DNA of 54,619 nt from a virus. Its lineage: Duplodnaviria > Caudoviricetes. The DNA lies in the IMG/VR virus record IMGVR_UViG_3300031660_001429, positions 1-54,619 of that record. One strand, given 5' to 3'. The notes below the pieces were generated by a model, which did no database searches, was not told the origin of the DNA, and saw only the letters and a list, made by a program, of their open reading frames with translations. A program made the translations under genes and the position numbers. Below are positions 9,591-33,477 of this stretch, piece by piece. Every line of letters starts with the position of its first letter. The stretch's first letter is position 1.

Positions 9591-9618
9591 AACGCGCTGT
9601 TCGATTGAGAAGCCAAGC
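9591..9618 (-). promoter_or_regulatory. 28-bp motif copy 1
   Basis: + strand aacgcgctgttcgattgagaagccaagc. Confidence 0.8.
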
Positions 9619-9649
9619 TGTTCCTGGCTTCTTTCTCGATCAATTTCGC

Positions 9650-10009
9650 TTACCCGAGACGGGCTACGTAGCGGGCGTAATCACCGCCCTCGGGATTGAC
9701 GTAGAGGTAAGAGCGTCCGGGAGCAGTGACCTCGACGCAGAGGTAGCCGTCGCCAGTGCCGCCACCCTTGCCACGCAGCCAGTCGCGTGACACCAGCAGG
9801 CTGCGCCCAAAGGCGTCGAATTCGGCAGGGGTGAGCTCCTTGGTCTCGGTGACGTAGACCTTGTGCTGGTCGCTCCCGCCCAGTTCGCCGAGGTCGGCAG
9901 GTTTGCGTGCAAACGGCAGGCGGACACTCAACTCTTCGACCTGGAGGCTTTGGCCTGCGAACTGCAGGGTGCGTGGGGTGCGTTCGATGGTGATGGTCAT
10001 GGTGCTCAT
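9650..10009 (-). CDS. Hypothetical protein (C-terminus resembles DUF6329)
   Basis: AGGA RBS; C-terminal VNPEGGDYARY; preceded by motif copy 2. Confidence 0.75.
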   Translation of the reverse strand: MSTMTITIERTPRTLQFAGQSLQVEELSVRLPFARKPADLGELGGSDQHKVYVTETKELTPAEFDAFGRSLLVSRDWLRGKGGGTGDGYLCVEVTAPGRSYLYVNPEGGDYARYVARLG

Positions 10010-10053
10010 GGCGATTTTCCTGGTATGGCGTCGTCAATCACGACATCTGTATG

Positions 10054-10081
10054 AACGCGCTGGTGGGGAGAGAAGCCAAGC
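10054..10081 (-). promoter_or_regulatory. 28-bp motif copy 2
   Basis: + strand aacgcgctggtggggagagaagccaagc. Confidence 0.8.
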
Positions 10082-10138
10082 TATTCATGGCTCCTCTCGC
10101 CGTCTTTTTGGCTTTGCCGAAACTCGCTGTGCTCGCTT

Positions 10139-10702
10139 TCAGGCGATGCGGTAGATCCGCTCGCCACCCTGCGGCTTGTCCGAGACGATGGTCAGGCCAA
10201 GTTTTTTCTTGAAGGCTCCGGCGAAGGTGCCGCGCACCGTGTGCGCCTGCCAACCGGTGGCGGTGCAGATCTGGCCGATGGTTGCGCCCTCGGGGCGTTG
10301 CAGCATCCGGATCACTTCGGCCTGCTTGCTGTTCTCGCGGGTGCGCGGCTTGACCCACGTGGCTTCGGCGGCGGTAACAAAGGCTTCCAGTTCGGGATCG
10401 CTCGCGGCCGCAGGCGCGCCTTCAGCGTTGGCGATGATCCGGTCGAGATTGGCTTCGAACTGACCGATGCCCGTCCTGTTCACGTCGGGACGCGGAATGT
10501 CCAGGGCGTCGTAGCCCTCCGCAGCGACCAACCAGTCGGTGCCGTCGGTGGTGATCAGTGCGCGGTTGAACAGGCCATTGAGCACTTTCTTGCGCGCGCC
10601 GCCTTTGATGTTGTCGGGGAACCAGTCGATCTTGCCGCTGGTGTGTTCAACCGCGTGGGCCAGGATCGCGTGCTGGGCAGGGGTCAGTTGGGTGGTGGTC
10701 AT
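10139..10702 (-). CDS. DUF3489 family winged-helix protein
   Basis: SKQAEVIRMLQRPEGATI...TGWQAHTVRG...RIYRI; AAGGAG RBS before ATG 10702. Confidence 0.85.
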   Translation of the reverse strand: MTTTQLTPAQHAILAHAVEHTSGKIDWFPDNIKGGARKKVLNGLFNRALITTDGTDWLVAAEGYDALDIPRPDVNRTGIGQFEANLDRIIANAEGAPAAASDPELEAFVTAAEATWVKPRTRENSKQAEVIRMLQRPEGATIGQICTATGWQAHTVRGTFAGAFKKKLGLTIVSDKPQGGERIYRIA

Positions 10703-10739
10703 GTTTTGCTCCTTCGATGTGGTGGACGGTGATGTGATG

Positions 10740-10767
10740 AACGCGCTGTTCTCAAGTGAAGCCAAGC
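10740..10767 (-). promoter_or_regulatory. 28-bp motif copy 3, with a perfect 10-bp inverted repeat extending to 10784
   Basis: + strand aacgcgctgttctcaagtgaagccaagc followed by gctttct-gcttggcttc. Confidence 0.8.
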
Positions 10768-10796
10768 GCTTTCTGCTTGGCTTCTTCGCTTCGCAA

Positions 10797-10994
10797 TCAG
10801 GTGTTGGCCTTGTCTGACGGGTTGGCATTGCGCCCCTGCTCGAGACCCGCGTTGAAGGCGGCTTCAAGCGCATCGCGTAGGCACCAGACCGCCACATCGT
10901 GGAAATCGAGTCTGTCCGAGCGGCGGGTTTCCAGGGTTTCGATGCCCAGCTTGTTTTGCGCGATCTGGGTCAGGAGTTGTTCGAGCTTGCTCAT
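10797..10994 (-). CDS. DUF6900-like small protein
   Basis: IETLETRRSDRLDFHDVAVW..RDALEAAF.AG; AAGGA RBS. Confidence 0.8.
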   Translation of the reverse strand: MSKLEQLLTQIAQNKLGIETLETRRSDRLDFHDVAVWCLRDALEAAFNAGLEQGRNANPSDKANT

Positions 10995-11031
10995 GTCCGT
11001 GTCCTTTCATGGTGTTGATGACGAACGTATG

Positions 11032-11059
11032 AACGCGCTGTTCCAGATGGAAGCCAAGC
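11032..11059 (-). promoter_or_regulatory. 28-bp motif copy 4
   Basis: + strand aacgcgctgttccagatggaagccaagc. Confidence 0.8.
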
Positions 11060-11111
11060 TCAATTCGCATGAATGACGAACAAATGATTGAAGGTGCCCC
11101 GAAGGGGAAAT

Positions 11112-11660
11112 ATGGGTATTTCGATTCGTGCCTACGCACGCCACCGAGGGGTGTCCGATGCAGCGGTGCGCAAGGCCATCGCTGCTGGGCGGATCACGCC
11201 GGAGGCAGACGGAACGATTGATGCCGAGCGCGTCGACCGCGAGTGGGCGCGCAATTCCGATGCACCGCGCAGTGGCACGGCCACCCGCGCGGTCAAGGTC
11301 GCCGTCCCGGAGTCCAGCGGACCTACAGCAGATGGACAAGCAGCCTCATTGGCAACATCCGCAGCAGGTGGAACGTCCTTGCTCCAAGCGCGGACGGTCA
11401 ACGAGGTGGTCAAAGCGCAAACCAACAAGGTGCGCCTGGCCCGCCTCAAGGGTGAGCTGGTAGATCGGCCGCAGGCCATCGCCCATGTTTTCAAGCTGGC
11501 GCGCTCCGAACGCGATGCCTGGCTCAACTGGCCCGCACGCATCTCGGCACAAATGGCAGCCAAGCTCGGCGTCGATCCCCACACGATGCACATCGCCTTG
11601 GAGGCGGCGGTGCGTGAGCACCTGCAGGAACTGGGCGAGATGCGCCCGAGGGTGGATTGA
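11112..11660 (+). CDS. Terminase small subunit (Nu1-like)
   Basis: N-terminal HTH SIRAYARHRGVSDAAVRKAI; directly upstream of and overlapping terL. Confidence 0.75.
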   Translation: MGISIRAYARHRGVSDAAVRKAIAAGRITPEADGTIDAERVDREWARNSDAPRSGTATRAVKVAVPESSGPTADGQAASLATSAAGGTSLLQARTVNEVVKAQTNKVRLARLKGELVDRPQAIAHVFKLARSERDAWLNWPARISAQMAAKLGVDPHTMHIALEAAVREHLQELGEMRPRVD

Positions 11661-13621
11661 TGGACATGGACTACGAAGGCGCTGCCGAGATTGAACGCGC
11701 GTGGCGCGAAGGACTGACTCCCGACCCGCTGCTCACCGTGTCCGAATGGTCAGATCGCCACCGGATGCTCTCCAGCAAAGCCTCTGCCGAACCGGGTCGC
11801 TGGCGCACCAGCCGCACGCCTTACCTGAAAGCGATCATGGATTGCCTGTCGCCGACCTCGCCGGTCGAGCGTGTGGTGTTCATGAAAGCGGCGCAGCTTG
11901 GCGCGACCGAGATGGGGTCGAACTGGATCGGCTATGTGATCCATCACGCACCCGGGCCAATGATGGCGGTCTGGCCGACAGTGGAGATGGCCAAGCGCAA
12001 CTCCAAGCAGCGGATCGATCCGCTGATCGAGGAGTCGTCCGCACTGGCTGAACTGATTGCACCGGCACGCAGCCGGGATTCCGGCAACACCATCCTGGCC
12101 AAGGAGTTCCGGGGTGGCGTGCTGGTGATGACCGGGGCCAACAGCGCGGTCGGACTGCGCTCGATGCCGGTGCGGTATCTGTTTCTCGACGAGGTCGACG
12201 GCTATCCGTTGGACGTCGAGGGTGAAGGCGATGCGATCTCGCTGGCCGAGGCGCGTACACGCACCTTCGCGCGGCGCAAGATCTTCATCGTCTCGACGCC
12301 GACAATCTCAGGTGCGTCGGCTATCGAGCGCGAGTACGAGGCCAGTGACCAACGTCGCTACTTTGTGCCGTGTCCGCATTGCTCGCACCGGCAGTGGCTG
12401 CGTTTCGAGCAGCTGCGTTGGGACAAAGGGCAACCGGAGACCGCTGCCTACATCTGTGAGTCATGTGACACCGCGATTGCCGAGCACCACAAGACGTGGA
12501 TGCTGGAGCACGGCGAGTGGCGCGCGATGATCACCGATGGCACGGGCAAGACGGCAGGCTTTCACCTGTCATCGCTGTACAGCCCGGTTGGCTGGCGCTC
12601 GTGGCGGGAGATCGCCGCTGCGTGGGAAGCCGCAGTCAGTAAAGATTCGGGATCGGCCGCCGCCATCAAGACCTTTAAGAACACCGAGTTGGGTGAAACC
12701 TGGGTCGAGGAAGGCGAAGCGCCGGACTGGCAACGACTGGTCGAACGCCGCGAGGACTACCGTGTCGGTACGGTGCCGCAAGGCGGTCTGCTCTTGGTCG
12801 GCGCGGCAGACGTGCAGAAGGATCGCATCGAGGCCTCGGTCTGGGCCTTCGGGCGTGGCAAGGAGTCCTGGCTGGTTGAGCACCGCGTGCTGATGGGTGA
12901 CACCGCCCGCGACGCGGTGTGGAAGCGCCTTACTGAAATGCTGGCCGAAACCTGGACTCACGCCTCCGGCGCGGTGATGCCGCTGGTGCGCTTTGCACTG
13001 GATACCGGGTTTGCAACGCAGGAGGCCTACGCCTTTGTGCGGGCTTGCCGCGATTCGCGTTTGATGGCGGTCAAGGGGGTGCCTCGCGGTGCAGCCTTGA
13101 TCGGCACGCCGACCGCCATCGATGTCTCGCAGGGTGGCAAGAAGCTGCGCCGGGGCATCAAGGTGTACACGGTGGCGGTCAGCATCGCCAAGCTCGAGTT
13201 CTACAACAACCTGCGCAAGAGCGCAGATGTTGGCGAGGACGGATTGACCACGGTGTTCCCGGCCGGGTTCGTCCATCTGCCCAAGATCGACGCTGAGTTC
13301 ATCCAGCAACTCTGCGCGGAACAACTGATCACCCGCCGCGACCGCAACGGCTTCCCGGTGCGTGAGTGGCAAAAGATGCGTGAGCGCAATGAGGCGCTCG
13401 ACTGCTACGTCTACGCCCGCGCGGCTGCATCGGCGGCGGGTCTGGATCGCTTCGAGGAACGTCACTGGCGGGAACTGGAGCGACAACTGGGGCTGGCCGG
13501 TCCGCCAGCCCTTGAAACACCTACTGAATCGATCAACGAGGCCACCCAACGCGGTGGCCTCGCTGTTTCTGGCAACCGTAACACCGGTCGGCGCGTGATC
13601 AAAAGCCGCTGGCTGTCCTGA
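11657..13621 (+). CDS. Terminase large subunit, lambda GpA family
   Basis: KAAQLGAT Walker A, LFLDEVD Walker B, STPT, RNEALDC. Confidence 0.95.
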   Translation: MMDMDYEGAAEIERAWREGLTPDPLLTVSEWSDRHRMLSSKASAEPGRWRTSRTPYLKAIMDCLSPTSPVERVVFMKAAQLGATEMGSNWIGYVIHHAPGPMMAVWPTVEMAKRNSKQRIDPLIEESSALAELIAPARSRDSGNTILAKEFRGGVLVMTGANSAVGLRSMPVRYLFLDEVDGYPLDVEGEGDAISLAEARTRTFARRKIFIVSTPTISGASAIEREYEASDQRRYFVPCPHCSHRQWLRFEQLRWDKGQPETAAYICESCDTAIAEHHKTWMLEHGEWRAMITDGTGKTAGFHLSSLYSPVGWRSWREIAAAWEAAVSKDSGSAAAIKTFKNTELGETWVEEGEAPDWQRLVERREDYRVGTVPQGGLLLVGAADVQKDRIEASVWAFGRGKESWLVEHRVLMGDTARDAVWKRLTEMLAETWTHASGAVMPLVRFALDTGFATQEAYAFVRACRDSRLMAVKGVPRGAALIGTPTAIDVSQGGKKLRRGIKVYTVAVSIAKLEFYNNLRKSADVGEDGLTTVFPAGFVHLPKIDAEFIQQLCAEQLITRRDRNGFPVREWQKMRERNEALDCYVYARAAASAAGLDRFEERHWRELERQLGLAGPPALETPTESINEATQRGGLAVSGNRNTGRRVIKSRWLS

Positions 13622-13638
13622 CACCCCAAGGAGAAAAC

Positions 13639-14130
13639 ATGAGTCTTGCTACCCGTATCGAAAGCCTGGTCATCCGCGTCGCGCAGGAGTTCAACGACGT
13701 CCGCGCCAAGGCAGGCAACCTGGCAAACCTCACCACCACCGACAAGTCGAATCTGGTCGCGGCCATCAACGAACTGAAGGCCGCCGTGGTGTCGTCGGCG
13801 GTGATCGACGATGCGCACGTCGCGGCCACGACCACGTACTCGTCCAACAAGATCGTCTCGCTGCTCGATGCGCTCAAGACCGAAATCTTGGGCGGTGCCG
13901 ATGCCGCCTACGACACGCTGGTGGAAATCCAGCAACTGCTGCAGAACGGCACCAGTGGCCTGGATGCCCTGCTGGCCGCCGTCAACAACCGTGTGCGCTT
14001 CGATGCGGCGCAGTCGTTGACCGTGGTCGAGCAACTTCAGGCACGCAGCAACATCGGTGCCGTCGCGGCCAGTGATGTCGGCAACACAGACACTGACTTC
14101 GTCGCGGTCTTTGTGGGTGCGCTGGTCTGA
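13639..14130 (+). CDS. Hypothetical virion-associated protein
   Basis: AAGGAG RBS; LTTTDKSNLVAAINEL and DTL.EI segments typical of phage fibre proteins. Confidence 0.75.
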   Translation: MSLATRIESLVIRVAQEFNDVRAKAGNLANLTTTDKSNLVAAINELKAAVVSSAVIDDAHVAATTTYSSNKIVSLLDALKTEILGGADAAYDTLVEIQQLLQNGTSGLDALLAAVNNRVRFDAAQSLTVVEQLQARSNIGAVAASDVGNTDTDFVAVFVGALV

Positions 14131-14522
14131 TGAGTCTCGCATCGCGCATCAGTGCGCTGGCCAGTCGTGTCGGACTCGAGGTCAAGACCAAGATCGACGC
14201 AACCCACCCCGGTCTGGCCCGGGCGTGGGTGTGTTTCGGCTACGTCGGCACGCAGGTCGTCGTGCGTGCATCGCACAACGTGGCCAGCGTGACCCGGACG
14301 GCGGCTGGCCGCTACCGGGTGACCTTCGCCACTGCCATGCCGGATTCCAACTACTGCTGGACGGCGCTCGCCCGTAGCAGCACCAACAGCGGCACGCAGC
14401 GCATTGCGATCGTGCGATCCAGCACCGACCAGAAGACCGCTCAGTACGTCGACATCAGTTGCGCCACCACGTCCGCATCCTTCGACGACTCCTCCGAAAT
14501 CAACCTCACGGTGTACCGCTGA
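14130..14522 (+). CDS. Hypothetical protein with fibre-tip-like beta domain
   Basis: RAWVCF...NVASVTRTAAGRYRVTF; TGATG coupling at both ends. Confidence 0.75.
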   Translation: MSLASRISALASRVGLEVKTKIDATHPGLARAWVCFGYVGTQVVVRASHNVASVTRTAAGRYRVTFATAMPDSNYCWTALARSSTNSGTQRIAIVRSSTDQKTAQYVDISCATTSASFDDSSEINLTVYR

Positions 14523-14743
14523 TGGCCTACACACAAGCACATCTCGACGCACTGGAAGCGGCGCTGGTCAAGGGCGAAAAGCGCGTGACTTTCGGCGACA
14601 AGACCGTCGAATACCGCAGCGTCGATGAACTCCAGGCCGCCATCGCGGCGGTCAAGCGCGATCTCTTCGAGCAGGCCGTGGACACCGGACTATGGCCCGG
14701 TGCGCCGCGCCAGATCCGGGTCACCACCGGCAAAGGGTTCTGA
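14522..14743 (+). CDS. Head-tail joining protein, gpW-like
   Basis: LDALEAAL..G.KRV...KTVEYRS.DEL; sits before portal. Confidence 0.85.
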   Translation: MAYTQAHLDALEAALVKGEKRVTFGDKTVEYRSVDELQAAIAAVKRDLFEQAVDTGLWPGAPRQIRVTTGKGF

Positions 14744-14745
14744 AC

Positions 14746-16266
14746 ATGCAATGGTTTGACCGTATGCGCAGACGCGTCGGCATGAGCCTGCTTGGCGGCA
14801 CGCCGTTCTATGACGGCATCGGTGGCGGCCGCCGCGCGTTGGCATGGCAGGTCGGCAATCCCGGTGCGGTCGCAGCTCTGGCGTTCACCCAGAACGAATT
14901 GCGCGCCAAGAGCCGCGATCTGGTACGCCGCAATGCCTGGGCAGCGGCAGGCGTCGAGGCCTTTGTCTCGAACGCCATCGGCACCGGCATCAAGCCGCAA
15001 AGCATGCTGGCCGATCAGCCCCTGCGCGAAGCCATCCACAGCCTGTGGTGGGACTGGTGCGAGGAAGCCGATGCTGCCGGACTGACTGATTTCTACGGCC
15101 TGCAGGCCTTGGCCTGTCGCGCCATGCTCGAAGGCGGGGAATGTCTGGTGCGGCTGCGCTATCGCCGCCCGGAGGATGTCCTGCCGGTGGGCTTGCAACT
15201 GCAGCTGCTCGAACCCGAACACCTGCCAGCCACGCTGAATCAGGAGTTGGCTTCGGGAAACGTGATCCGTGCGGGCATCGAGTTCGACAAGCTCGGACGG
15301 CGGGTGGCTTACCACCTGTATCGCTCGCACCCGGGTGATGGCTCACTGGCCCCGATGTCGGGCACCGGTGGCGTGGTGGGCGGTCTCGACACGGTGCGTA
15401 TCCCGGCCAGCGAAGTCATCCACCTGTTTCGTCCCTTGCGGCCCGGACAGATCCGGGGCGAACCGTGGCTGGCGCGCGCATTGGTCAAGCTCAATGAACT
15501 CGACCAGTACGACGACGCCGAGCTCGTGCGCAAGAAGACGGCAGCCATGTTCGCAGGCTTCATCACGCGCCTTTCGCCTGAGGACAACCTGATGGGCGAA
15601 GGGCTGCCGGATGCCAGCGGTGCGGCATTGGCCGGGCTGGAGCCGGGCACGATGCAGATCCTGGAGCCCGGCGAGGACGTGAAGTTCAGTCAGCCTGCCG
15701 ACGTCGGCGCGAGCTACGCCGAATTCCTGCGCATGCAGTTTCGGGCGGTGGCAGCGGCGATGGGCATCACCTACGAGATGCTGACCGGCGACCTGACGCA
15801 AGTGAACTACTCGTCGATCCGGGCAGGGTTGCTGGAGTTTCGCCGCCGCTGTGAGGCCATCCAGCACGGCGTGATCGTCCACCAGCTGTGCCGCCCGATC
15901 TGGCGTGCCTGGATGGAACAGGCGCTACTTGAAGGCGCGCTGGTGCTGCCGCAATTCACCGAGAAGAAGCGCGACTACTTCGCCGCCAAGTGGATTCCAC
16001 AGGGCTGGCAGTGGGTCGATCCCAAGAAGGAATTCGACGCCATGCTGACCGCCATTCGCGCCGGTCTGCTGTCTCGCTCGGAAGCCATCTCGGCCTTCGG
16101 CTATGACGCCGAGGACATCGATCGCGAGATCGCCGCCGACAACCAGCGGGCGGACGAACTCGGTCTGGTTTTCGATTCCGACCCGCGACATGACAAAGCG
16201 CCGCTGAGCGCTCCCATGAATGCGGCCGCCACGGTGGCAGTGCCGCAAGACCATCAGGACAACTGA
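14746..16266 (+). CDS. Portal protein, lambda family
   Basis: LRAKSRDLVRRN, RPGQIRGEP, VNYSSIRAGLLE. Confidence 0.95.
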   Translation: MQWFDRMRRRVGMSLLGGTPFYDGIGGGRRALAWQVGNPGAVAALAFTQNELRAKSRDLVRRNAWAAAGVEAFVSNAIGTGIKPQSMLADQPLREAIHSLWWDWCEEADAAGLTDFYGLQALACRAMLEGGECLVRLRYRRPEDVLPVGLQLQLLEPEHLPATLNQELASGNVIRAGIEFDKLGRRVAYHLYRSHPGDGSLAPMSGTGGVVGGLDTVRIPASEVIHLFRPLRPGQIRGEPWLARALVKLNELDQYDDAELVRKKTAAMFAGFITRLSPEDNLMGEGLPDASGAALAGLEPGTMQILEPGEDVKFSQPADVGASYAEFLRMQFRAVAAAMGITYEMLTGDLTQVNYSSIRAGLLEFRRRCEAIQHGVIVHQLCRPIWRAWMEQALLEGALVLPQFTEKKRDYFAAKWIPQGWQWVDPKKEFDAMLTAIRAGLLSRSEAISAFGYDAEDIDREIAADNQRADELGLVFDSDPRHDKAPLSAPMNAAATVAVPQDHQDN

Positions 16267-16267
16267 C

Positions 16268-17575: not shown

Positions 17576-17578
17576 GCC

Positions 17579-17956: not shown

Positions 17957-17988
17957 TCCCGTCCCGACGATCCATCTCACTCCCCCGA

Positions 17989-18009
17989 AAACCCGCCGCT
18001 GGCGGGTTT
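17989..18009 (+). terminator. Terminator-like hairpin AAACCCGCC-GCT-GGCGGGTTT
   Basis: Perfect 9-bp stem, followed by ATTTCTGGAGA RBS of MCP. Confidence 0.6.
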
Positions 18010-18030
18010 CGTCATTTCTGGAGATCCCAA

Positions 18031-19331: not shown

Positions 19332-19341
19332 GGAACACCCC

Positions 19342-19767: not shown

Positions 19768-19774
19768 ACACCCT

Positions 19775-19987: not shown

Positions 19988-19989
19988 AC

Positions 19990-21340: not shown

Positions 21341-21343
21341 CCC

Positions 21344-24690: not shown

Positions 24691-24709
24691 ATTTTCAGGG
24701 GAAAGTCCA

Positions 24710-25780: not shown

Positions 25781-27339
25781 CGGATCGCATCGTCGTTCAA
25801 GACCTCGCGGAGGTTTCCAGCAAACCGACGCCGGGAAGCGAACTGCCCGCCTTCCAGAGTGAAGTGCTCTCGCGCGCCACTTTTGGGGCGAGCGCAGCCA
25901 GCTTCATGCCGGAAACAGCTGTCGCTCCGCTGCCGCCCAATCTGGCGGCCAGCCTGCTGGCGGAATCCTTGGCGGGCCCCTGGCCACCCATCGATGCACC
26001 GATCTTTCTGGTCGAAGTGTTGCGCCGTGATACGGCCTCAAGCGCCATCGTCGCCACCGGTATGGATGCCTTTGGCGACCAGCCTTGGCCGGATGCGCAA
26101 CGCGGCGTGTTTGCCTTCCGCCATGATTGGATGGAGCCCCTCGTGGAACGGCTGGAGTGGCAGACCAGCGTCACGCGGCTGGCCAGTGGCAACGAATCCC
26201 GTCAGGCACGCCGACGTGTTCCTCGGCGCTGGCTCACCTACAAAGTAGGCAACGCCCGCCAGACCGATGCCTTGATTGGCGACTGGCTGGCCGATCATCT
26301 GGGCCAGGCCGCGTGGTGGCCACTGCCACAGTACGCCGTTCATCTCACTGAGAACGCTGAGGAGGGCGCGCTGACTCTCGGGGTGTCGGAGGCTGACTGG
26401 CGGCGCTTTGTCCCACCGGCTGCTGCGCTGCGGCTGACCTATGACGGCGTGCAGGGCTGGGACAGCGACGAACGCTGGGTGCTGATCATTGCGCCCGAGG
26501 GCTGGCAAGTCGCCCAACTCAGCGACGTGGAAACCGATCTGCTGTGGCTGGCCGAACCCTTGGCGCGTGCTGCCGGAGCCGGTAGCAGCGTGATGCCGCT
26601 GGTGTGGGGCTGCGCTGTCGATCCGGCGGACTTGACCCAGTGGGTGCCGGGGATGGTCGGCGGCAGCGTCACCACGACTGTCACGCCCGCGCAAACGCCG
26701 GACATGGATGCACTCGACGACGCGTGGCTCGACGAGATTCCGGTCTGGCCAGATGGCAACTGGCGTGACGATCCGACGGCCGTAGCTCTTGCCACGATCA
26801 CCCGACAAGACTTCTCGCCTGCAGATCCGTGGGTGCGCCGGGACGATCCCTGGGCGACGACAGCTTTGCAACGGCGCTATCTGGCAAGCTCACTCGATGA
26901 AATCGAGATCTGGCGGGCGCGGCTATGGCGCACCCAGGGGCGTCTGGAAGCCTTCTGGCTGCCCGATAGCTTGGCCCCGATCCTGTGGGTGAACGTCGAA
27001 GCCGATCCTGAGGATGGCTTCCTGCGCATGGATGGCAAAGACATCTCGGCGTTCTGGCATCGCCCCGCCGCCTGCTTGATCGTGCACCCAGACGGCTATC
27101 GGCAGTACGCCCTGACGGCGACCTGCCATCTGGATCAAGGCGGTGTGCTGGTGCTGCGCTCTGGCCTTGACGACTGGGTGCCCGCAGGCAGCCGCGTCAT
27201 TCGCCTCGTGCGCTGCCGCCTCGACCACGACGCCGTCGATCTGTACTGGCACAGCCCGACGCTGCTGGAGATCACCTTGACCGCGCGCCAGTTGCCCGAA
27301 CCGCGCGGCAATGACCGTCAAACCTACGAGGGAGAGTAA
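25777..27339 (+). CDS. Tail protein (distal tail-like)
   Basis: ERLEWQTSV..E.RQARR..PRR; GRLEAFWLP. Confidence 0.75.
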   Translation: MTDRIVVQDLAEVSSKPTPGSELPAFQSEVLSRATFGASAASFMPETAVAPLPPNLAASLLAESLAGPWPPIDAPIFLVEVLRRDTASSAIVATGMDAFGDQPWPDAQRGVFAFRHDWMEPLVERLEWQTSVTRLASGNESRQARRRVPRRWLTYKVGNARQTDALIGDWLADHLGQAAWWPLPQYAVHLTENAEEGALTLGVSEADWRRFVPPAAALRLTYDGVQGWDSDERWVLIIAPEGWQVAQLSDVETDLLWLAEPLARAAGAGSSVMPLVWGCAVDPADLTQWVPGMVGGSVTTTVTPAQTPDMDALDDAWLDEIPVWPDGNWRDDPTAVALATITRQDFSPADPWVRRDDPWATTALQRRYLASSLDEIEIWRARLWRTQGRLEAFWLPDSLAPILWVNVEADPEDGFLRMDGKDISAFWHRPAACLIVHPDGYRQYALTATCHLDQGGVLVLRSGLDDWVPAGSRVIRLVRCRLDHDAVDLYWHSPTLLEITLTARQLPEPRGNDRQTYEGE

Positions 27340-27344
27340 GCACG

Positions 27345-28133
27345 ATGAGCCAGAACCCATTGCTGGAAGTCGAGCTATACGCCTTCGCCAGCAACAGCGC
27401 GCAGTTCTATCTGACGCCGCACGAGTTCGATGTTGATCTGGATGGCAACCTCTACAAGAGCCTGGCCTTGGAACGCAACGAACTGGCGCTGGGTGCTGAA
27501 GCTGCGAAGGCTGGCTTGGATCTGAAACTGCCGCCGAACTGTGATTTGGTGCGCCACCTGCTCGCCAACTCGCTGACCGGCGACACTACCTCGATCACCC
27601 TGCGCATCGGACGGCGCGATACCTGGGGCGACTACTGGTGGATCTCCGGCACGCGCTGGATGGGCCGGGTGCTGGGCGTCGAAGTCGCCGACGATGTGGC
27701 TCGCGTTCGCTGCGAATCCGCGCAAGTCAGTCTCAAGCGTATCGGGTTGCGGCGGCTCTACAGCCGCAAATGTTCCCACGTGCTGTATTCGGCTGCCTGT
27801 GGTGCCTCACCGATTTCTGCCAGCGCCTTGGTGAGCAACAGCAATGGCCGCAACGTCGATCTCGACGGTGGCACGCCCGGCAGCGTCAGTGGTGGCTTGG
27901 CCGGTGGCTGGCTGCAAACCCCGGAAGGTGCCCGCCACATGATCGTCAATGATTACGGTGGCGGCGTCGAGTTGCTCTATCCGGTCGCCATTGAAGCCGG
28001 TACCGAGGTTCTGCTGACGGTCGGCTGCGATCACAGCACGGCCACGTGCGTGTCGCGCTTCGGCAACCTCGACAACTACGGCGGCTTTCCCGCCATCCCG
28101 AGCAAAAACCCGTTCTCGACGGGCGTGTTCTGA
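27345..28133 (+). CDS. BR0599-family tail tip/baseplate hub protein
   Basis: C.HVLY...C; GCDH...C..RFGNLDNYGGFP.IP. Confidence 0.88.
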   Translation: MSQNPLLEVELYAFASNSAQFYLTPHEFDVDLDGNLYKSLALERNELALGAEAAKAGLDLKLPPNCDLVRHLLANSLTGDTTSITLRIGRRDTWGDYWWISGTRWMGRVLGVEVADDVARVRCESAQVSLKRIGLRRLYSRKCSHVLYSAACGASPISASALVSNSNGRNVDLDGGTPGSVSGGLAGGWLQTPEGARHMIVNDYGGGVELLYPVAIEAGTEVLLTVGCDHSTATCVSRFGNLDNYGGFPAIPSKNPFSTGVF

Positions 28134-28151
28134 ATCCCTGGAGAAATCGCC

Positions 28152-28379
28152 ATGTGGTACCTCGTCGTCATCGTGGTGGCGGCGCTGGTTTCGGTCGCGC
28201 TCGCGCCGAAACCGCCCGAACCCAAACCGGCGTCCCTGTCTGACGTCGATGCCCCCACCGCAGAAGAAGGCCGACCGATTCCCGTCGTGTTCGGCACCGT
28301 GCTGCTGCGTGGCTCCAACGTCGTCTGGTATGGCGACCTCGAAGCCGACCCGATCAAGAAGAAAGGTGGCAAGAAATGA
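28152..28379 (+). CDS. Small tail protein
   Basis: PTAEEGRPIPVVFGT...NVVWYGD. Confidence 0.8.
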   Translation: MWYLVVIVVAALVSVALAPKPPEPKPASLSDVDAPTAEEGRPIPVVFGTVLLRGSNVVWYGDLEADPIKKKGGKK

Positions 28380-28591
28380 CCACTCAGACCGTCATCACCA
28401 TCGATCACGTGCGCGCCGTGGGCCTGTGCGTGAACGGCACGCGCACTTGGTTTGCGCGTCACGATCTGGATTTCCGAGCCTTCCTGCGCGATGGCTGTGA
28501 TGCCGAAACCTTGCTGGCCACTGGCGATGCAATGGCACAACGTGTGGTCGATCACGCCCGCAATCGATCCAGCCAGCGGGAGCAAGGCTGA
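28376..28591 (+). CDS. Small tail-associated protein
   Basis: LC..G.R.WF.RH.LD...FL..G; coupled at both ends. Confidence 0.8.
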   Translation: MTTQTVITIDHVRAVGLCVNGTRTWFARHDLDFRAFLRDGCDAETLLATGDAMAQRVVDHARNRSSQREQG

Positions 28592-30864
28592 TGGGTGGCA
28601 GCAGCAAGAAGCAAACCGTTGGTTATCGCTACCGGATGGGTCTGCATCTGGCCCTGTGCCAAGGCCCGGTCGATGCCGTGCAGGAGATTCAGATGGGCGA
28701 CCGTACCGCGTGGGGTGATGCCGACCGTGCGCCGCTGTCCAGCGGGCATGGCCTGACCAGCCTCTCTATCAACAAGCCCACGCTGTTTGGCGGCGACGAG
28801 CGCGAAGGCGGCGTGGTCGGCACCATCGATGTGCTTTCTGGTCATGCCGGACAAGGACGTAACGACTATCTGATGAGCCGCCTCGGCAGTTCCATTCCGG
28901 CATTTCGGGGCGTGCTGTCCTTGGTGGCACGCAAGATCCTGTTCGCGGCCAACAACCCCTACATCAAGCCATGGGCGGTACGGGTGCGTCGCTTCACGGC
29001 GGGTTGGTTCGATGCGCCGTGGATGGAGTGGAATGCCGAAGTCCGCACCTGGGATGAGGACGAAGGCCAGGAAATCAGCATCGGCATGAACCCGGCGCAC
29101 ATCCTGGTGCAGTGCCTCACCGATCCGCACTGGGGCATGGGCTATCCGCAGAGCACCATCGGCTGGAGTTTCTGGAACGCGGCATGGGCTTTGTCGAGTG
29201 AGGGCTTCGGCCTCAATCTGATCTGGACACGGCAGCAGCCCATCGAGAGCTTCATCGGCCAGGTCATCGACCACATTGGCGGCATCCTCTACACCGATCC
29301 GGAGCAAGGCACGTTTGAGCTCAAGCTGCTGCGCGACGACTATTGGATCGACAGCCTGCCGCAGTTGGGGCCTGACGAAATTGTGCGGCTGGAACGCTTC
29401 GAACGCGCCCAGTGGGGCGAGCTGCCCAATGAACTGACCGTGGTCTACACCGACTGGCAGACCGGCGGTGATGCTGCCGTCACGGTTGAGAACCTGGCCG
29501 CCATCCAGTTGCAAGGCGGCGTGATCAATCAACGCCGCGACTACCCGGGCGTTAACTACGGACCACTGGCTGCGCGACTGGCCTTGCGTGACCTGCGCGC
29601 CTTGGGTTCGCCGCTGGCCCGGATGAGTCTGACGGTTGCACGCGACACGCTGGAGCGTGCGCCGCTGCCGGGTGATGTATTTCTGCTGAACTGGCCGCGC
29701 TTGGGTGTTGATCAGATGGTGGTGCGCGTCACCGGCATCGACACCGGCACCTTGGGCGCGGCCGAGTGGCGCATCGAAGCCATGGAAGATGTGTTCGGGA
29801 TGAGCAACACCGTGCTGTCGCCCCCGCCACCGCACGTCGAGGAGCCGCCCATCGAACCTTTGCCGCCCGCCGTGGTGCTGGCCGTCGAGGTGCCGTATTG
29901 GGAACTGGCCCGGCGCTTGTCGCGGGCCGATCTCGCGTTCCTGACCGACACAGACACCTATCTCGGCGCGCTGGCGGCCGCAGGCGGTACCGGGCAACTG
30001 AACTGGCAACTGGCCACCGGTGCTACGAGCGGCGATCTCGCTGCCGTCGTGGGTGAGGACTACGCGCCACTGCTCACGCTCAATGCCGTTTTGCCTGCGA
30101 GCGAGGTTGATGCCGTTGGTGTTCCGGTGACGGCCATCAGCCAGCCGGAGAGACTGGCCGTGGGCGACTACGCCTATCTGGTGGCGGCCAATGGGGCAAT
30201 TGCAGAGGCCGTTGCCGTCCTGGCCTTTGATGCTGCCAACGCGACCATCGATCTCGCACGCGGCGTGCTCGACACCACACCCCAAGCACATGCCCCGGGG
30301 ACTCGGTTGATCGGTGTCGGCGAATGGCTGGCATCCGAAGGCGCGGAGCGGGCCCCGGGCGAATCGGTGTTCGTGGGCGCGATCCCTCGCACTTCGACCG
30401 ATCAGGGCGATCCTGTGTTGGCTGCCAATGGGCAGCCGATGGTGCTGGCTGGTCGGCAGGCTTTGCCGTATCCACCCGGTCGTATCCGCCTCAATGGCCA
30501 GACCGAGCCTGTCGTAGTGGCCGGTGACCTCACCGTCGCGTGGGCCCATCGCGACCGCACACAGCAGACCGCCTATCTAGTGCAGCAAGACGAGGGCGAT
30601 ATCGGGCCAGAACTGGGCGTGACCTACACGGTGCACATCCGCAATCGCAACAACGTGCTGGTTCGTACTGAGACGGGGCTGCTCGGCACCGCCTACATCT
30701 GGACGGCAGCAGTGGCCGCGCTGGATGCCGGTGCGCTGGGCGACCGCATCACGGCGGAGATCAGTGCCGTGCGCGATGGTTTGAGTAGCTGGCAGCCGCA
30801 GGTGCGGATCATGGATCGCGCGGGCTACGGCCTGCGCTGGGGGCAGTATTGGGGAGGTGTGTGA
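28591..30864 (+). CDS. Tail tip / central tail fibre-like protein
   Basis: MGGSSKKQTVGYRY, NNPYIKPW, MNPAHI, RGVLDTTP, W.HRDR. Confidence 0.88.
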   Translation: MGGSSKKQTVGYRYRMGLHLALCQGPVDAVQEIQMGDRTAWGDADRAPLSSGHGLTSLSINKPTLFGGDEREGGVVGTIDVLSGHAGQGRNDYLMSRLGSSIPAFRGVLSLVARKILFAANNPYIKPWAVRVRRFTAGWFDAPWMEWNAEVRTWDEDEGQEISIGMNPAHILVQCLTDPHWGMGYPQSTIGWSFWNAAWALSSEGFGLNLIWTRQQPIESFIGQVIDHIGGILYTDPEQGTFELKLLRDDYWIDSLPQLGPDEIVRLERFERAQWGELPNELTVVYTDWQTGGDAAVTVENLAAIQLQGGVINQRRDYPGVNYGPLAARLALRDLRALGSPLARMSLTVARDTLERAPLPGDVFLLNWPRLGVDQMVVRVTGIDTGTLGAAEWRIEAMEDVFGMSNTVLSPPPPHVEEPPIEPLPPAVVLAVEVPYWELARRLSRADLAFLTDTDTYLGALAAAGGTGQLNWQLATGATSGDLAAVVGEDYAPLLTLNAVLPASEVDAVGVPVTAISQPERLAVGDYAYLVAANGAIAEAVAVLAFDAANATIDLARGVLDTTPQAHAPGTRLIGVGEWLASEGAERAPGESVFVGAIPRTSTDQGDPVLAANGQPMVLAGRQALPYPPGRIRLNGQTEPVVVAGDLTVAWAHRDRTQQTAYLVQQDEGDIGPELGVTYTVHIRNRNNVLVRTETGLLGTAYIWTAAVAALDAGALGDRITAEISAVRDGLSSWQPQVRIMDRAGYGLRWGQYWGGV

Positions 30865-31460
30865 TGGAAGCACGCATTGATGTTCATCTGCTCACCCTGA
30901 ACGAGCCTGCCGAATGGCGGGAGACCTGCATCGCCAGCCTCGAGGACGCACCGATCCAGTTGCACGTTTTGTCCGGCATTCCGGGCCGTATTGGTGAGGC
31001 ACGCGCGGCAGGCTACGCACAAGGCACGCTGCCGCTGGTGTCCTTTGTCGATCCCGACGATTTGTACGAAGCCAGTGCCTTCACACAACTGGCCGATGCG
31101 CTGGATGCCTGCCCGCAGGCCGTGATGGCCTACACCGACGAAGCACTGACCGACGAAAACGGCCGGGACATCGCCGTACGGCGTCTGGCCTACAGCCGTT
31201 GGCAACACGCCAACAGCGCCAGCCACGTGCACGGCCTGATCGTGATGCGTCGATCCGTCGTCGAAGCCGTGCTCAAGGAAACTACCGACCTCAACAACTT
31301 CGCCGACTGGCTGTTGACCCTGCTCATAGCCAAGCGCGGCGGCGTGCTGTACCTGCCCATCGTCGGGCGGCATTGGCGACAACACCCGCAGCAAAGCCAC
31401 CGAACCGGCGATCCGGAAGCAGTCCGGCGCATTCGCCAAGCATCGAACCTCTGGAGATAA
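30864..31460 (+). CDS. GT-A fold glycosyltransferase-like protein
   Basis: ARAAGY..GT...VSFVDPDD (DxD), AYTDE, DW..L, WRQHP.Q typical of GT2 enzymes. Confidence 0.7.
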   Translation: MEARIDVHLLTLNEPAEWRETCIASLEDAPIQLHVLSGIPGRIGEARAAGYAQGTLPLVSFVDPDDLYEASAFTQLADALDACPQAVMAYTDEALTDENGRDIAVRRLAYSRWQHANSASHVHGLIVMRRSVVEAVLKETTDLNNFADWLLTLLIAKRGGVLYLPIVGRHWRQHPQQSHRTGDPEAVRRIRQASNLWR

Positions 31461-31463
31461 GCC

Positions 31464-31814
31464 ATGTCATCAACCGATCCGAACCTTGGACTCAACTACG
31501 GCTGGACGCTCGGCGAGAGCGGCTGGGACACCGGCATGGACGCCAACCTGAAGCGCCTCGGCGCGGTAGTCGGCCTGTCCGTGAAAGACCGCGACCTGAC
31601 CACGCCACCGGCCAGCCCCACCAACGGCGACCGCTACCTCATTCCTGCCGCCGCCACCGGCGTGTGGGCAGGCAAGACCAACCAGATCGCCGTGCGCATC
31701 GCCGATGCCTGGGAGTACCACACGCCCAAGATCGGCTGGCTTTGCTACATCGAGGACGAGGCCAAGCTCTCGGCCTTCAAATCCACCGGCTGGAGCGCAG
31801 GCCTCGCCATCTGA
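31464..31814 (+). CDS. DUF2793 family protein
   Basis: TPPASP..GDRYLI...ATG.WAG....IA......W....PK.GW. Confidence 0.85.
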   Translation: MSSTDPNLGLNYGWTLGESGWDTGMDANLKRLGAVVGLSVKDRDLTTPPASPTNGDRYLIPAAATGVWAGKTNQIAVRIADAWEYHTPKIGWLCYIEDEAKLSAFKSTGWSAGLAI

Positions 31815-31839
31815 GTTTCCATCCCTTCGCAACCACCTG

Positions 31840-31862
31840 AACCCGCCCACGAGGCGGGTTTT
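31840..31862 (+). terminator. Terminator-like hairpin AACCCGCC-CACGA-GGCGGGTTTT
   Basis: 8-bp stem plus T run, followed by ATTTCTGGAGA RBS. Confidence 0.6.
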
Positions 31863-31881
31863 GCATTTCTGGAGAACGCCA

Positions 31882-32187
31882 ATGACCGAACCCGAACAAC
31901 AACAGCCTGGGCACGTAGAGAACATGCTGCTTCTGCGCCGCGAGGACTTCGACGAGCTGCTGGCCCATGCCGCCGAGCGCGGTGCCGAGCGTGTGCTCGC
32001 CCATCTCGGATTAGAAAACGGCCACGCCGCACGCGACATCCGCGAACTGCGTGACCTGCTGGAAGCCTGGCGTGATGCCCGGCGTACCGCGTGGCAAACC
32101 ACCGTGAAGGTCATCACCACCGGCATCCTGGCCGCGCTGCTGGTCGGTGCCGCCATCAAGTTGAAGCTGATGGGAGGCGTGCAATGA
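31882..32187 (+). CDS. DUF6127-like membrane protein (holin/antiholin candidate)
   Basis: AAERGA..L..LGL....AARDIRELRDLL; C-terminal TM segment. Confidence 0.75.
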   Translation: MTEPEQQQPGHVENMLLLRREDFDELLAHAAERGAERVLAHLGLENGHAARDIRELRDLLEAWRDARRTAWQTTVKVITTGILAALLVGAAIKLKLMGGVQ

Positions 32188-32411
32188 CTGCCAAGCCGAA
32201 GATCTGCCTGCTAGACGACTGGCGGCGCGTGTTGCGACGTGCCTGGAGCATCCGCTTCTCGCTGCTGGCCGCTGCTTTCACGGCAGCGGAAGTGGTGGTG
32301 CCGCTGTTCGGGGACGTGCTGCCTCGCGGCACCTTCGTGCTGCTGGCCTTTGCCGCCAGCATCGGCGCGACCGTTGCGCGCATCGTGGCGCAGCCGGAGA
32401 TGCACCGATGA
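32184..32411 (+). CDS. Putative holin
   Basis: Two hydrophobic segments; WRR.L.RAWS; directly before lysozyme. Confidence 0.7.
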   Translation: MTAKPKICLLDDWRRVLRRAWSIRFSLLAAAFTAAEVVVPLFGDVLPRGTFVLLAFAASIGATVARIVAQPEMHR

Positions 32412-32908
32412 TCCGGCCACCGCAAAGACGCACCGTGGCCGCGCTGACGCTGTCCGCCGCCGCCCTGGTCGGCATCGTGCTGCACGAGGGCTACACCGAC
32501 CGCGCGGTGATTCCGGTCAAGGGCGATGTGCCGACCATCGGCTTCGGTACCACGACCGACGTGAAGCTGGGCGACACCACCACGCCGCCGAAGGCGCTGG
32601 CCCGCGCGCTCACGGATGTGCAGCAGTTCGAGGGCGCATTGAAAACGTGCGTGACCGTGCCGCTGGCCCAGCACGAGTACGACGCGCTGGTGAGCTTCTC
32701 CTACAACGTCGGCAGCCGTGCCTTCTGCCAGTCCACGCTGGTGAGAAAACTCAACGCCGAGGACTACGCGGGAGCCTGCGCCGAGCTGCTGCGCTGGCGC
32801 TTCTTCCAGGGCAAGGACTGCGCGCTGCCTGCCAACGCGCGCCTGTGCGGCGGGCTGGCCACACGGCGCGAGGCCGAGTACCGCCAGTGCGTCGGAGAAG
32901 CCCCATGA
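32408..32908 (+). CDS. Lysozyme (GH24), SAR-type endolysin
   Basis: Hydrophobic N-terminus, HEG...D.PTIGFG.T, ALVSFSYNVG, GL..RR..E. Confidence 0.92.
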   Translation: MIRPPQRRTVAALTLSAAALVGIVLHEGYTDRAVIPVKGDVPTIGFGTTTDVKLGDTTTPPKALARALTDVQQFEGALKTCVTVPLAQHEYDALVSFSYNVGSRAFCQSTLVRKLNAEDYAGACAELLRWRFFQGKDCALPANARLCGGLATRREAEYRQCVGEAP

Positions 32909-33402
32909 ACTTGATTCCGTGGCCGTACCGGCTGCTGGCTCTCACGGCGCTCGGCGTCGCCCTTTTCGGGTTTGGCTGGATCAAGGGGGCGAGCCACGTT
33001 CAAGCGCAATGGGATGCCGCCATCCAGCAACAAACCCTTCAAGCCGCAGCTGCCCGCGAGCGGCAGGCACAAGCCACCGTCAAGGTCGTCGCCCAGTATG
33101 TCGACCGCGTCCGCGTCGTCCGCGAGAAGGGCGACACGATCATCAAGGAGGTTCCCGTCTATGTGCCCGTTCAAGCCGATGCTGCTTGCACTATCAACCG
33201 TGGCTTTGTGCGCCTGCACGACGCTGCCGCCACCGGTGAACTGCCCGAGCCCGCCCGAGATGCTGATGCGGCCCCCGCAGGCATTGCGCTCACTGCCGCC
33301 GCCGGAACACTTGCCGCCAACTACCAGACCTGCCACGAAAATGCCGAGCAACTGAGGGCGTTGCAGGCGTGGGTCAGGGAAATGGAGTCTGCCACCAAGT
33401 AA
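32905..33402 (+). CDS. Rz-like inner membrane spanin
   Basis: N-terminal TM, coiled coil, IIKEVPVYV...C; follows endolysin. Confidence 0.8.
   Translation: MNLIPWPYRLLALTALGVALFGFGWIKGASHVQAQWDAAIQQQTLQAAAARERQAQATVKVVAQYVDRVRVVREKGDTIIKEVPVYVPVQADAACTINRGFVRLHDAAATGELPEPARDADAAPAGIALTAAAGTLAANYQTCHENAEQLRALQAWVREMESATK
33161..33355 (+). CDS. Rz1-like outer membrane lipoprotein spanin, embedded in Rz in the +1 frame
   Basis: AAGGAGG RBS at 33145; signal peptide MCPFKPMLLALSTVALCAC with lipobox; Pro-rich mature part. Confidence 0.75.
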   Translation: MCPFKPMLLALSTVALCACTTLPPPVNCPSPPEMLMRPPQALRSLPPPEHLPPTTRPATKMPSN

Positions 33403-33449
33403 TCAGCGCTTGGCGACTTCGCAACACCTGATCGTTACATCCCGAATGC

Positions 33450-33477
33450 GCTTGGCTTTCCAGCCGAACAGCGCGTT
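33450..33477 (+). promoter_or_regulatory. 28-bp motif copy 5 (opposite orientation to copies 1-4)
   Basis: gcttggctttccagccgaacagcgcgtt, followed by CAT. Confidence 0.8.

Follow-up and report, generated by a model that had tools for sequence, protein, structure and literature searches.

Why does a phage genome carry one and the same short sequence five times, each time a few dozen bases ahead of a small gene? The question is raised by the record IMGVR_UViG_3300031660_001429 (Caudoviricetes), a stretch of 54,619 bases which is the whole IMG/VR virus record (completeness rating 56%) and is called the window here. The initial annotation of this DNA described a 28-bp motif of two blocks with a fixed spacing, GCTTGGCTT-N10-CAGCGCGTT, and took it for a promoter or operator of an undescribed regulon. 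We conclude that the motif is probably the core of a family-specific, non-σ70 promoter cassette with a minimal leader. It is most likely a dedicated, portable promoter which stands ahead of accessory genes, the integrase operon and some defence genes.

A pattern search allowing two mismatches found exactly five matches in the window, all without a mismatch: 9591-9618(-), 10054-10081(-), 10740-10767(-) and 11032-11059(-), numbered as copies 1 to 4, and 33450-33477(+), copy 5. Dinucleotide shuffles gave a mean of 0.03 matches, and five were reached in 0/100 of them. Each 9-mer half occurs exactly only within these copies, the sole exception being an inverted block 1 at 10775-10783(+). All copies are co-oriented with the following gene, and the distance to its start codon, put at about 34-45 bp by the initial annotation, is 33-44 nucleotides (nt; Table 1); a purine-rich ribosome-binding site (RBS) can be read at all five starts. 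CAT follows directly after four copies and ACT after copy 1. An inverted half-site lies 5' of copies 1-3, perfect in copy 3 and imperfect in copies 1 and 2. The initial description of the motif in the window thus holds.

The conserved sequence extends beyond 28 bp. The 414 unique exact copies define a 31-base consensus, (C/A)GCTTGGCTTC-N5-CGAACAGCGCGTTCAT, at the tail of which T31 is conserved in 97%, A30 in 84% and C29 in 83%. Further downstream, 68% of the copies have C at position 37 and 84% have a purine at position 38; a T-poor, A/C-rich stretch then leads to the purines of the RBS at positions 55-60. Block 2 is conserved over 16 bp, with a GAAC-N5-GTTC dyad inside. Since the 414 copies had been selected by the motif, a second conservation analysis was sampled by protein, using 76 loci which encode DUF3489 (61-97% identical to the window protein). 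An exact motif is present at 66 of them, a copy with one mismatch at seven and none at three, and the copies end 36-41 nt before the start codon. In the 62 unique upstream regions, positions 1-10 and 17-31 are 90-100% conserved, and positions 11-16 and 35-62 vary. Of the copies with two mismatches or fewer, 510/533 have a downstream open reading frame (ORF), starting 36-39 nt past the motif in 317/510 cases according to a crude ORF caller which mis-framed copy 4 of the window. All copies lie on one strand in 130/134 multi-copy loci. Homologous motifs therefore stand consistently upstream of genes and in the same direction, as the initial annotation had required.

The motif is not peculiar to this phage. 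Exact-pattern scans yielded at least 120 stretches from genome contigs and at least 120 from viral contigs (240 loci). Among the matches listed, 443 copies are exact, 69 deviate at one position and 12 at two, compared with 0, 0 and 1 for the reversed-pattern control. The hosts, according to the record titles of the matches listed, are mostly Betaproteobacteria, followed by Lysobacterales, other Gammaproteobacteria and some Alphaproteobacteria; the motif also occurs in the complete genome of Candidatus Nitrospira defluvii. A few single-copy matches in metagenome-assembled genomes of other phyla may be due to chance or to binning errors, about 17 exact chance matches being expected in 596 Gb on both strands if uniform base composition is assumed. 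The same layout, with three exact copies and one with one mismatch, was found in the isolated Acidithiobacillus caldus phage AcaML1. In its record (JX507079; locus L246), the copies lie at 20437-20464, 21115-21142, 22247-22274 and 3018-3045 and overlap the annotated coding sequences Gp29, Gp30, Gp33 ('terminase small subunit') and Gp5, so that this annotation probably contains a number of wrong starts or genes.

In whole genomes, exact and extended-consensus copies are confined to prophage or integrase-island regions, of which there are one or two per genome; five genomes (G001-G005) have 1-5 copies each, G006 has eight and G007 has five. The remaining matches with one or two mismatches in these seven genomes are scattered on other contigs and are as frequent as those of the reversed pattern used as control. 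When 301 genomes were sampled evenly from the order of G001, 36 had a match of at most one mismatch and seven matched the reversed control; isolated one-mismatch matches are therefore largely due to chance. Two or more copies, lying in clusters, occur in 14 of the 301 genomes. The restriction to mobile elements argues against a host regulon, of which no sign was found apart from one exact copy at another locus (L034, see below).

The genes headed by the motif form a limited set. Clustering of 483 downstream ORFs gave four large families: c0 (phrog_8020, about 120 aa) with 122 members, two-domain DUF3489 with 88, DUF6900 with 69 and DUF2924 with 32; the smaller ones include the family of the copy 5 gene with 14 members. 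Single-linkage clustering also put the 119-aa gene behind copy 2 into c0, though its PHROG match differs. The usual order in an array is DUF6900 > DUF3489 > c0, and extra cassettes stand between DUF3489 and c0 in different relatives. Copies of the DUF2924 type head an operon of DUF2924 and a large serine recombinase (AcaML1 Gp4-Gp3; HdN1), a pair present in 5/5 genomes first examined. A one-mismatch copy in the Nitrospira prophage is separated by 38 nt from the start of a defence operon (DUF499/DUF1156-methyltransferase/PLD-helicase) followed by Thoeris genes, and an exact copy stands ahead of a second DUF499 gene at another locus (L013). The proposal of a gene set separate from the early and late operons is supported, but the set is not limited to small uncharacterised genes, since the integrase operon and defence cargo belong to it. 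PHROGs and PADLOC assigned no function to any of the five motif-headed genes of the window, and the ESM Atlas places the c0 family in hypothetical-protein clusters only. A less usual target is a DUF932 gene (L046, 820-1806), whose start follows the end of an exact copy after 37 nt; we take DUF932 to be a family of conjugative-element leading regions.

What, then, does the motif do? Copy 4 and the corresponding first copies of other arrays need a promoter because they lie in a divergent gap beside terS with no co-directional gene upstream; in the window this gap places copy 4 52 nt from the terS start codon (11112). No σ70-like site was found on either strand within 8900-11300 and 33200-34000. 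Divergence of the motif points in the same direction. DUF3489 is encoded in 28/301 of the sampled genomes, 11 of which lack a copy with one mismatch or fewer, and ten of these 11 were inspected. Three of the ten loci have a three-mismatch variant at the canonical distance, four have stronger variants such as CTTGATTG...GAAGCGTTCAT or ...GAGCGTAAAT, and in three no variant was found within 1.25 kb. The forms of the motif include the canonical one, ...AGAGCGTTCAT and CTTGATTG...GAAGCGTTCAT. The distance from CTTG to GCGT is unchanged in 7/7 variants, the surviving core being CTTG-N18-GCGTTCAT with GCGT(T/A)(C/A)AT as its second part; in terms of hexamers, a −35-like block containing TTG and an 8-bp block ending in AT persist 17 bp apart. 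A CTTG/GCGT core kept at an unchanged 18-nt gap in diverged lineages is the behaviour expected of −35 and −10 elements.

The arrangement we propose is as follows. Block 1 (CTTGGCTT) would be a −35-like element, and block 2 (..GCGTTCAT), separated by 17 bp from the hexamer TTGGCT, would correspond to an extended −10-like element. The start of transcription would fall on the conserved step from pyrimidine to purine at motif positions 37/38, some 7 nt beyond the final T, and the resulting leader of about 28 nt, T-poor and unstructured, would lead into the Shine-Dalgarno sequence. We infer that transcription starts at the motif and that the motif is read by something other than the plain σ70 holoenzyme, which could be an element-encoded factor or an unusual recognition by the host RNA polymerase, possibly modulated by DUF3489. 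Each cassette would be an independent transcription unit for its gene or small operon, the units being the array DUF6900 > DUF3489 > variable genes > c0, the DUF2924-serine recombinase operon, the post-lysis gene and, in some prophages, the defence cargo. At internal copies, the stem-loop closing the upstream unit would borrow block 1 as its 3' arm and so create a composite stem-loop/promoter module. Because this module is repeated and nearly invariant, it would also serve as a recombination point for the gain and loss of cassettes.

The general architecture of the σ70 family is present (two blocks, fixed spacing and a pyrimidine-purine step about 7 nt further on), which indicates compatibility of architecture only. 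In a σ70 promoter proper, 16-18 bp separate a −35 element near TTGACA from a −10 element near TATAAT, the second base of which is A and the sixth T; the motif offers TTGGCT, a 17-bp spacer and GTTCAT, with T instead of A at position 2, and does not belong to this class. We also considered a reading of the type of extracytoplasmic function (ECF) σ factors (GAAC at 17-20, N16, CRYC at 37-40) and rejected it, since two invariant blocks would be left unexplained.

Several observations weigh against the promoter cassette. In its −10-like hexamer, GTTCAT, the second base is not the A required by σ70 and, to our knowledge, neither block fits the consensus of σ32, σ54, σ28 or ECF factors. The σ32 consensus is CTTGAA-N13/14-CCCCAT, and the spacing in the motif would be 18; σ54 is mismatched by the absence of GC at −12. 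Pfam detected no sigma-like protein in the 31 ORFs of AcaML1 or the 47 ORFs of the Nitrospira prophage, the sole sigma-related match being a sub-threshold Sigma70_r3 in AcaML1 Gp1. The 16-bp block 2 with its dyad exceeds a −10 element in length, and its conservation may be due in part to a bound regulator. The tight spacing between motif and start codon would suit an element of the mRNA as well. The metatranscriptome contigs (four of six runs) span early, array and late genes alike and give no start, strand or level, so that they were not used as evidence; their ends at 9586/9589, 11058/11071 and similar places fall on the repeated motif, where an assembly is expected to break. At the L034 locus (2970-4937), which is outside the usual gene set, an exact copy ends 86 nt before a gene for a PhaC-like polyhydroxybutyrate synthase. 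Finally, a conserved ORF of about 70 aa surrounds the motif at DUF2924-type copies, where part of the conservation could be coding.

An overlong block 2 with a small dyad would also suit an operator. The motif would then be mainly an asymmetric bipartite site for an element-encoded regulator which switches the accessory genes and the integrase together, with a weak or overlapping promoter, and DUF3489 would be the best candidate, binding as a monomer with one domain per block. We hold this alternative, which partly overlaps with the promoter cassette, to be unlikely as the principal explanation. A precedent exists in the monomeric two-domain phage repressor which binds asymmetric repeated sites, as described in PMC9283540. 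The initial annotation had suggested that the winged-helix protein DUF3489 could be the regulator. Pfam confirms the family, and the predicted structure (predicted local distance difference test score, pLDDT, 81.7) contains two winged-helix-like domains, at residues 8-66 and 126-186, and between them a linker of about 55 aa modelled with low confidence. The best Foldseek matches are the winged helices of ArsR/SmtB, MarR and TFE, although with weak E-values (best 0.015, none <=0.001), and a sequence search of the PDB gave nothing below E 0.2. The putative recognition regions are invariant across 61 homologues (52-95% identity), matching an invariant target. DUF3489 is itself motif-headed in 73/76 loci and lies within the 8-kb locus in 36/38 well-flanked arrays; in the other two, the contig carries the gene at a distance of about 20 kb, where it closely follows a motif copy of its own. 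Against a role as regulator, exact or one-mismatch copies persist ahead of DUF2924-recombinase operons in genomes without DUF3489 (G004, G110 and G240), and canonical-type DUF3489 occurs with strongly diverged motifs (L336 and L337). The copy of G004 sits in a defence island beside smpB. No clean co-variation of DUF3489 with the motif variants was seen in the ten diverged loci. DUF3489 may still be considered the best candidate regulator on the grounds of its predicted domains, its invariant putative recognition residues and its presence in the arrays. DUF6362, also named by the initial annotation, was not detected among the 29 window ORFs scanned (Pfam, E <= 0.01).

A further possibility, which we put forward tentatively and consider rather improbable, joins both ideas. 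The 31-bp element and an element-encoded protein would form a self-contained, host-independent transcription socket, in which the protein recruits or redirects the host RNA polymerase to a promoter that the host reads poorly. Most plausibly this protein would be DUF3489, with one domain per block like σ regions 4 and 2, or else DUF2924. In the 14 multi-copy genomes of the sample, DUF2924 and DUF3489 are each present in 13; the AlphaFold model of DUF2924 has a pLDDT of 86, and its best Foldseek match in the PDB has an E-value of 0.1, none being significant. If the socket exists, the integrase, accessory or anti-defence genes and swapped-in defence cargo would be expressed identically from Betaproteobacteria to Nitrospira, and integrase islands which keep the motif but have lost the factor would be silent, like satellites, until a related phage supplies it.

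The stem-loops raise the question of whether the motif acts on RNA. It would then be transcribed within a polycistronic or read-through message and, from a constant distance ahead of each RBS, direct processing, stability or the control of translation. The tight spacing in spite of a variable intervening sequence favours this, as does the presence of block 1 in the stem-loops of many copies. An inverted block 1 with at most one mismatch was found within 45 nt upstream of 78/404 unique copies, compared with 2/404 in a control region. Most loops measure 3 or 7 nt, and such variation in length suits a hairpin more than it suits the operator of a dimer. Pairing of block 1 with upstream sequence was seen in 76% of the DUF3489-type, 59% of the c0-type and 32% of the DUF6900-type copies, the last being usually the first in the array; the stem-loop is thus enriched at internal copies, as in the promoter cassette proposed above. 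When the window was folded against shuffles, copies 1-3 gave z values of -4.9, -2.2 and -1.8 (for copy 1, 0/200 shuffles folded equally well), and the region of copy 4 folded no better than shuffles. The stems extend into the variable bases by a mean of 1.37 pairs, against 0.99 +/- 0.04 with shuffled partners (0/1000 shuffles reach this value), a weak but significant effect whose significance is overstated because the sequences are related. On the other hand, the copies that are first in the array lie in a divergent gap without an upstream co-directional gene or another promoter-like site, and the blocks are conserved as sequence, not as pairing partners. An upstream inverted block 1 with up to two mismatches is present in only 183/531 unique copies, a possible 4-bp hairpin of block 2 is marginal, and Rfam 15 gave no match at E <= 1 on either strand of 8900-11300. 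A primary role in RNA thus seems quite unlikely.

The boundaries between related phages coincide with the motif. When the array was compared by BLAST against all loci, blocks of homology between relatives started at the 5' edges of the motif copies (window positions 11059, 10767, 10081 and 9618), and the identity stepped from 79% to 90% across copy 2 in two relatives (L172 and L195). Over the array, Thiomonas bhubaneswarensis DSM 18181 is 97% identical to the window; Dechloromonas agitata DSM 13637 is another culturable candidate lysogen with such an array. A cassette of about 497 nt, consisting of copy 2 and its 119-aa gene, is absent from many three-gene arrays. This agrees with the suggestion that the repeats permit gain and loss of cassettes. 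These edges, the variable cassettes between DUF3489 and c0, and the presence of DUF2924 and a serine recombinase in the 5/5 genomes could also mean that the motif is primarily a recombination site or an attC-like cassette boundary, on which DUF2924 and the large serine recombinase or phage recombination proteins act, any role in expression being secondary. Such a function is very unlikely. The core array is syntenic and not freely shuffled, single fixed genes and the very operon of the recombinase are among those behind the motif, and neither asymmetry nor a constant spacing to the start codon, 5' of the gene, is required of a pure recombination site. Mosaic edges are an expected by-product of a conserved repeat, since 31 bp of identity suffice for homologous exchange without a dedicated enzyme. 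Membership among integron gene cassettes was rejected separately. An attC site is an imperfect palindrome with GTTRRRY/RYYYAAC cores, lies 3' of a promoterless ORF and is accompanied by an IntI tyrosine recombinase; the motif is found on the 5' side of genes, its GTTCAT is unlike GTTRRRY and the associated recombinase is of the large serine type. No tyrosine recombinase was found among the window ORFs scanned with Pfam.

Could the conservation simply be coding? The motif would then start a small antisense ORF or belong to a sense peptide. The reverse complement does begin with ATG in 449/562 unique copies, but the antisense ORFs are inconsistent in length, from fewer than 10 to more than 130 codons, with 233/449 shorter than 30. 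The sense frame has no consistent ORF upstream (median 23 open codons), stop codons occur inside the motif in 22/562 copies, including copy 3 of the window, and third-codon positions are equally invariant. Both the antisense ORF and the sense peptide were rejected for array copies because of the inconsistent ORFs and in-motif stops. At DUF2924-type copies (L031, L117, L330-L332 and others), the motif lies inside the 3' end of the ORF of about 70 aa mentioned above, which has a conserved N-terminal helix and a variable middle and ends at the DUF2924 start codon. Prophage lineages with this type of copy have a block 2 variant ending in GTGAAT, and in one lineage a change within the motif is synonymous in the frame of this ORF. 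As a general explanation, coding is extremely improbable.

The window derives from a temperate phage with a λ GpA-type terminase and a siphovirus-type tail. The plus-strand block 1-9006 comprises replication genes (a helicase, DUF6511, a PD-(D/E)XK nuclease, an AAA_25 primase/helicase-like protein and a RuvC-like resolvase) and is completed by two ParB_N-methylase fusions. Such paired fusion genes of ParB_N and a DNA methylase stand just before the array in 3/3 phages examined (window 6089-7768 and 7597-9006; AcaML1 Gp24/25; L249 17255-19902). A terminator-like hairpin behind the second methylase gene would close the rightward early operon ahead of the array. The four motif-headed genes of the minus strand (9190-10994) are divergent from terS and a GpA-type terL. 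The late operon runs on the plus strand up to 33402; its final genes are those for lysis, and copy 5 with its 96-aa gene comes next. The coordinates of the motif copies and their genes are collected in Table 1.

Table 1 Features of the motif array and its surroundings in the window
Feature	Position	Strand	Remark
Terminator-like hairpin with T-rich tail, directly 3' of the second methylase gene	9013..9029	+	
120-aa gene, phrog_8020, family c0	9190..9552	-	commonest motif-headed family
Motif copy 1, 31 bp, ends in ACT	9588..9618	-	38 nt before start of the 120-aa gene
Stem-loop, 3' arm is block 1 of copy 1; outer stem to about 9601-9639	9608..9632	-	z -4.9
119-aa gene, with copy 2 a cassette of about 497 nt	9650..10009	-	cassette missing in many relatives
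Motif copy 2, 31 bp	10051..10081	-	44 nt before start of the 119-aa gene
Stem-loop, upstream sequence pairs with block 1 and first variable bases of copy 2	10068..10098	-	fold z -2.16
DUF3489 gene, 187 aa	10139..10702	-	Pfam; two predicted winged-helix-like domains
Motif copy 3, 31 bp	10737..10767	-	37 nt before DUF3489 start
Perfect stem-loop after the DUF6900 stop codon, 3' arm is block 1 of copy 3	10758..10784	-	10-bp arms, 7-nt loop
DUF6900 gene, 65 aa, first gene of the array	10797..10994	-	Pfam PF21841, E 3e-25
Motif copy 4, 31 bp, ends in CAT, first of the array	11029..11059	-	37 nt before DUF6900 start
Motif copy 5, 31 bp, 3' of the lysis genes at the end of the late operon	33450..33480	+	33 nt before start of the 96-aa gene
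96-aa gene, family c6	33511..33801	+	14 motif-headed homologues

A second conserved element of about 24 nt (window 11071-11094) lies directly upstream of copy 4 towards the RBS of terS. Judged by eye and uncounted, it is nearly unchanged in most of 52 DUF6900-type loci, a sub-group being different there. It may be a promoter or leader of the late operon, in which case the motif and the late control region would abut back to back. A weak match to DUF6456 (E 1.9e-4, below the family cut-off) was found in AcaML1 Gp20 (L246 14552-15079). We take DUF6456 to be the family of GafA, the activator of the Rhodobacter gene transfer agent, and Gp20 may be a late-gene activator of these phages.

The motif array is shared between phages with different tails: the window module (13639-33402) is of the siphovirus type, with a major tail protein containing an Ig-like domain and a tape measure, and AcaML1 has a sheath and tube. 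The cargo region of the window (33808-53913) is lower in GC (0.56-0.61 vs 0.63-0.67) and encodes McrBC, a type I restriction-modification system (HsdR/S/M), a WYL regulator, TmtA (PADLOC PDLC03969) and a NERD-UvrD helicase, as well as a YgjP-like peptidase; McrBC cargo is present in AcaML1 too. No motif copy with two mismatches or fewer heads the defence genes of this region. Sequence nearly identical to window 9000-11700 (0.86-0.97 of sampled words) was found in metagenome DNA from a salt lake, lake water and bioreactors in several studies; the organism carrying it is therefore widespread or a recurrent contaminant.

If the motif is indeed a promoter cassette, it would define the transcription units, and probably a shared switch, of those genes which are least understood in a very common family of prophages, namely the small uncharacterised genes, the serine-integrase operon and the defence cargo. 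A non-σ70 sequence so invariant across bacterial classes would suggest that RNA polymerase is directed in a manner so far unrecognised, or that a new family of DNA-binding regulators exists. The motif would also be a useful mark in annotation, which corrects gene starts (e.g. in AcaML1) and flags accessory cassettes, and it could serve as a portable expression part for Proteobacteria. The claim that the element is undescribed agrees with what was found in the literature: a search with both block sequences gave no published description of it among the papers listed (supplementary files were outside the search), the only one of these with both sequences being about a human gene, DUF3489 appeared as a bare mention only, and an AcaML1-related paper does not mention the element.

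How does the motif compare with known repeated elements? The initial annotation likened it to the CUP (conserved upstream) repeats, which lie in the leading region of the IncN plasmid pKM101/R46 ahead of small accessory and anti-restriction genes. Their regulator is under the same CUP control, and recombination between the repeats occurs. As a functional analogy this is fair, but the motif is not a member of the group: CUP repeats are plasmid-borne, longer than the motif and equipped with ordinary promoters, and we know of no sequence likeness between the two. The single-strand promoters Frpo, also invoked, are in our judgement a poor analogy for a double-stranded DNA prophage. A partial analogy are the CII promoters pI, pRE and paQ of λ, where one signal couples the integrase with other non-lytic functions, as the motif would; the CII site, TTGC-N6-TTGC around the −35 region, bears no likeness to the motif.

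The start-associated sequences (SAS/ESAS) of Cluster K mycobacteriophages (PMC3203893) resemble the motif as conserved repeats which precede the start codons of some of the genes by a short and constant distance and whose function is unproven. An SAS, however, reportedly lies a few bases from the start codon and includes the RBS, whereas about 37 nt remain between the end of the motif and the start codon, and the RBS is no part of the motif. Similarly, the stoperators of Cluster A mycobacteriophages, which are read by a monomeric two-domain repressor according to the descriptions in PMC9283540 and PMC6550527, are asymmetric, orientation-dependent and repeated within one phage genome. As described there, they are 13-17 bp long, number 20-30 per genome, are found throughout operons and block elongation. 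The motif, in contrast, has 4-6 copies of 31 bp at a fixed distance before start codons and none inside early or late operons (0 of the five sites in the window). Morons, autonomous promoter-gene-terminator units of prophages by the criteria given in PMC5567305, are likewise accessory units which are transcribed independently and inserted between or after core modules, but they have individual σ70 promoters and not one shared invariant element.

The motif is closest in function to the promoter-early stem-loop (PeSL) cassettes of T4-type phages (Arbiol et al. 2010, PMC2839356; Comeau et al. 2014, PMC4122927), without being a member of this group. As far as PMC4122927 describes them, PeSL cassettes are, like the motif, small repeated modules of stem-loop and promoter which flank small, variable and mostly uncharacterised genes and mark points of insertion, deletion and replacement between relatives. 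The layout of stem-loop and promoter and the position at indel boundaries are thus shared, while the T4 early promoter and the T4-like myovirus setting are not: the PeSL promoter is of the host-type T4 early kind and belongs to large virulent myoviruses. The motif is not σ70-like, occurs in AcaML1-like temperate phages with siphovirus- and myovirus-type tails and, in the reading preferred here, would also drive the integrase operon and defence cargo. The known kind behind our finding is that of repeated regulatory cassettes which organise accessory genes; unusual in the motif are its near-invariance across bacterial classes, its non-σ70 sequence and its proposed control of the integrase and defence cargo. 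If this reading is right, the idea of repeated regulatory cassettes driving the modular shuffling of genes would reach temperate phages as well.

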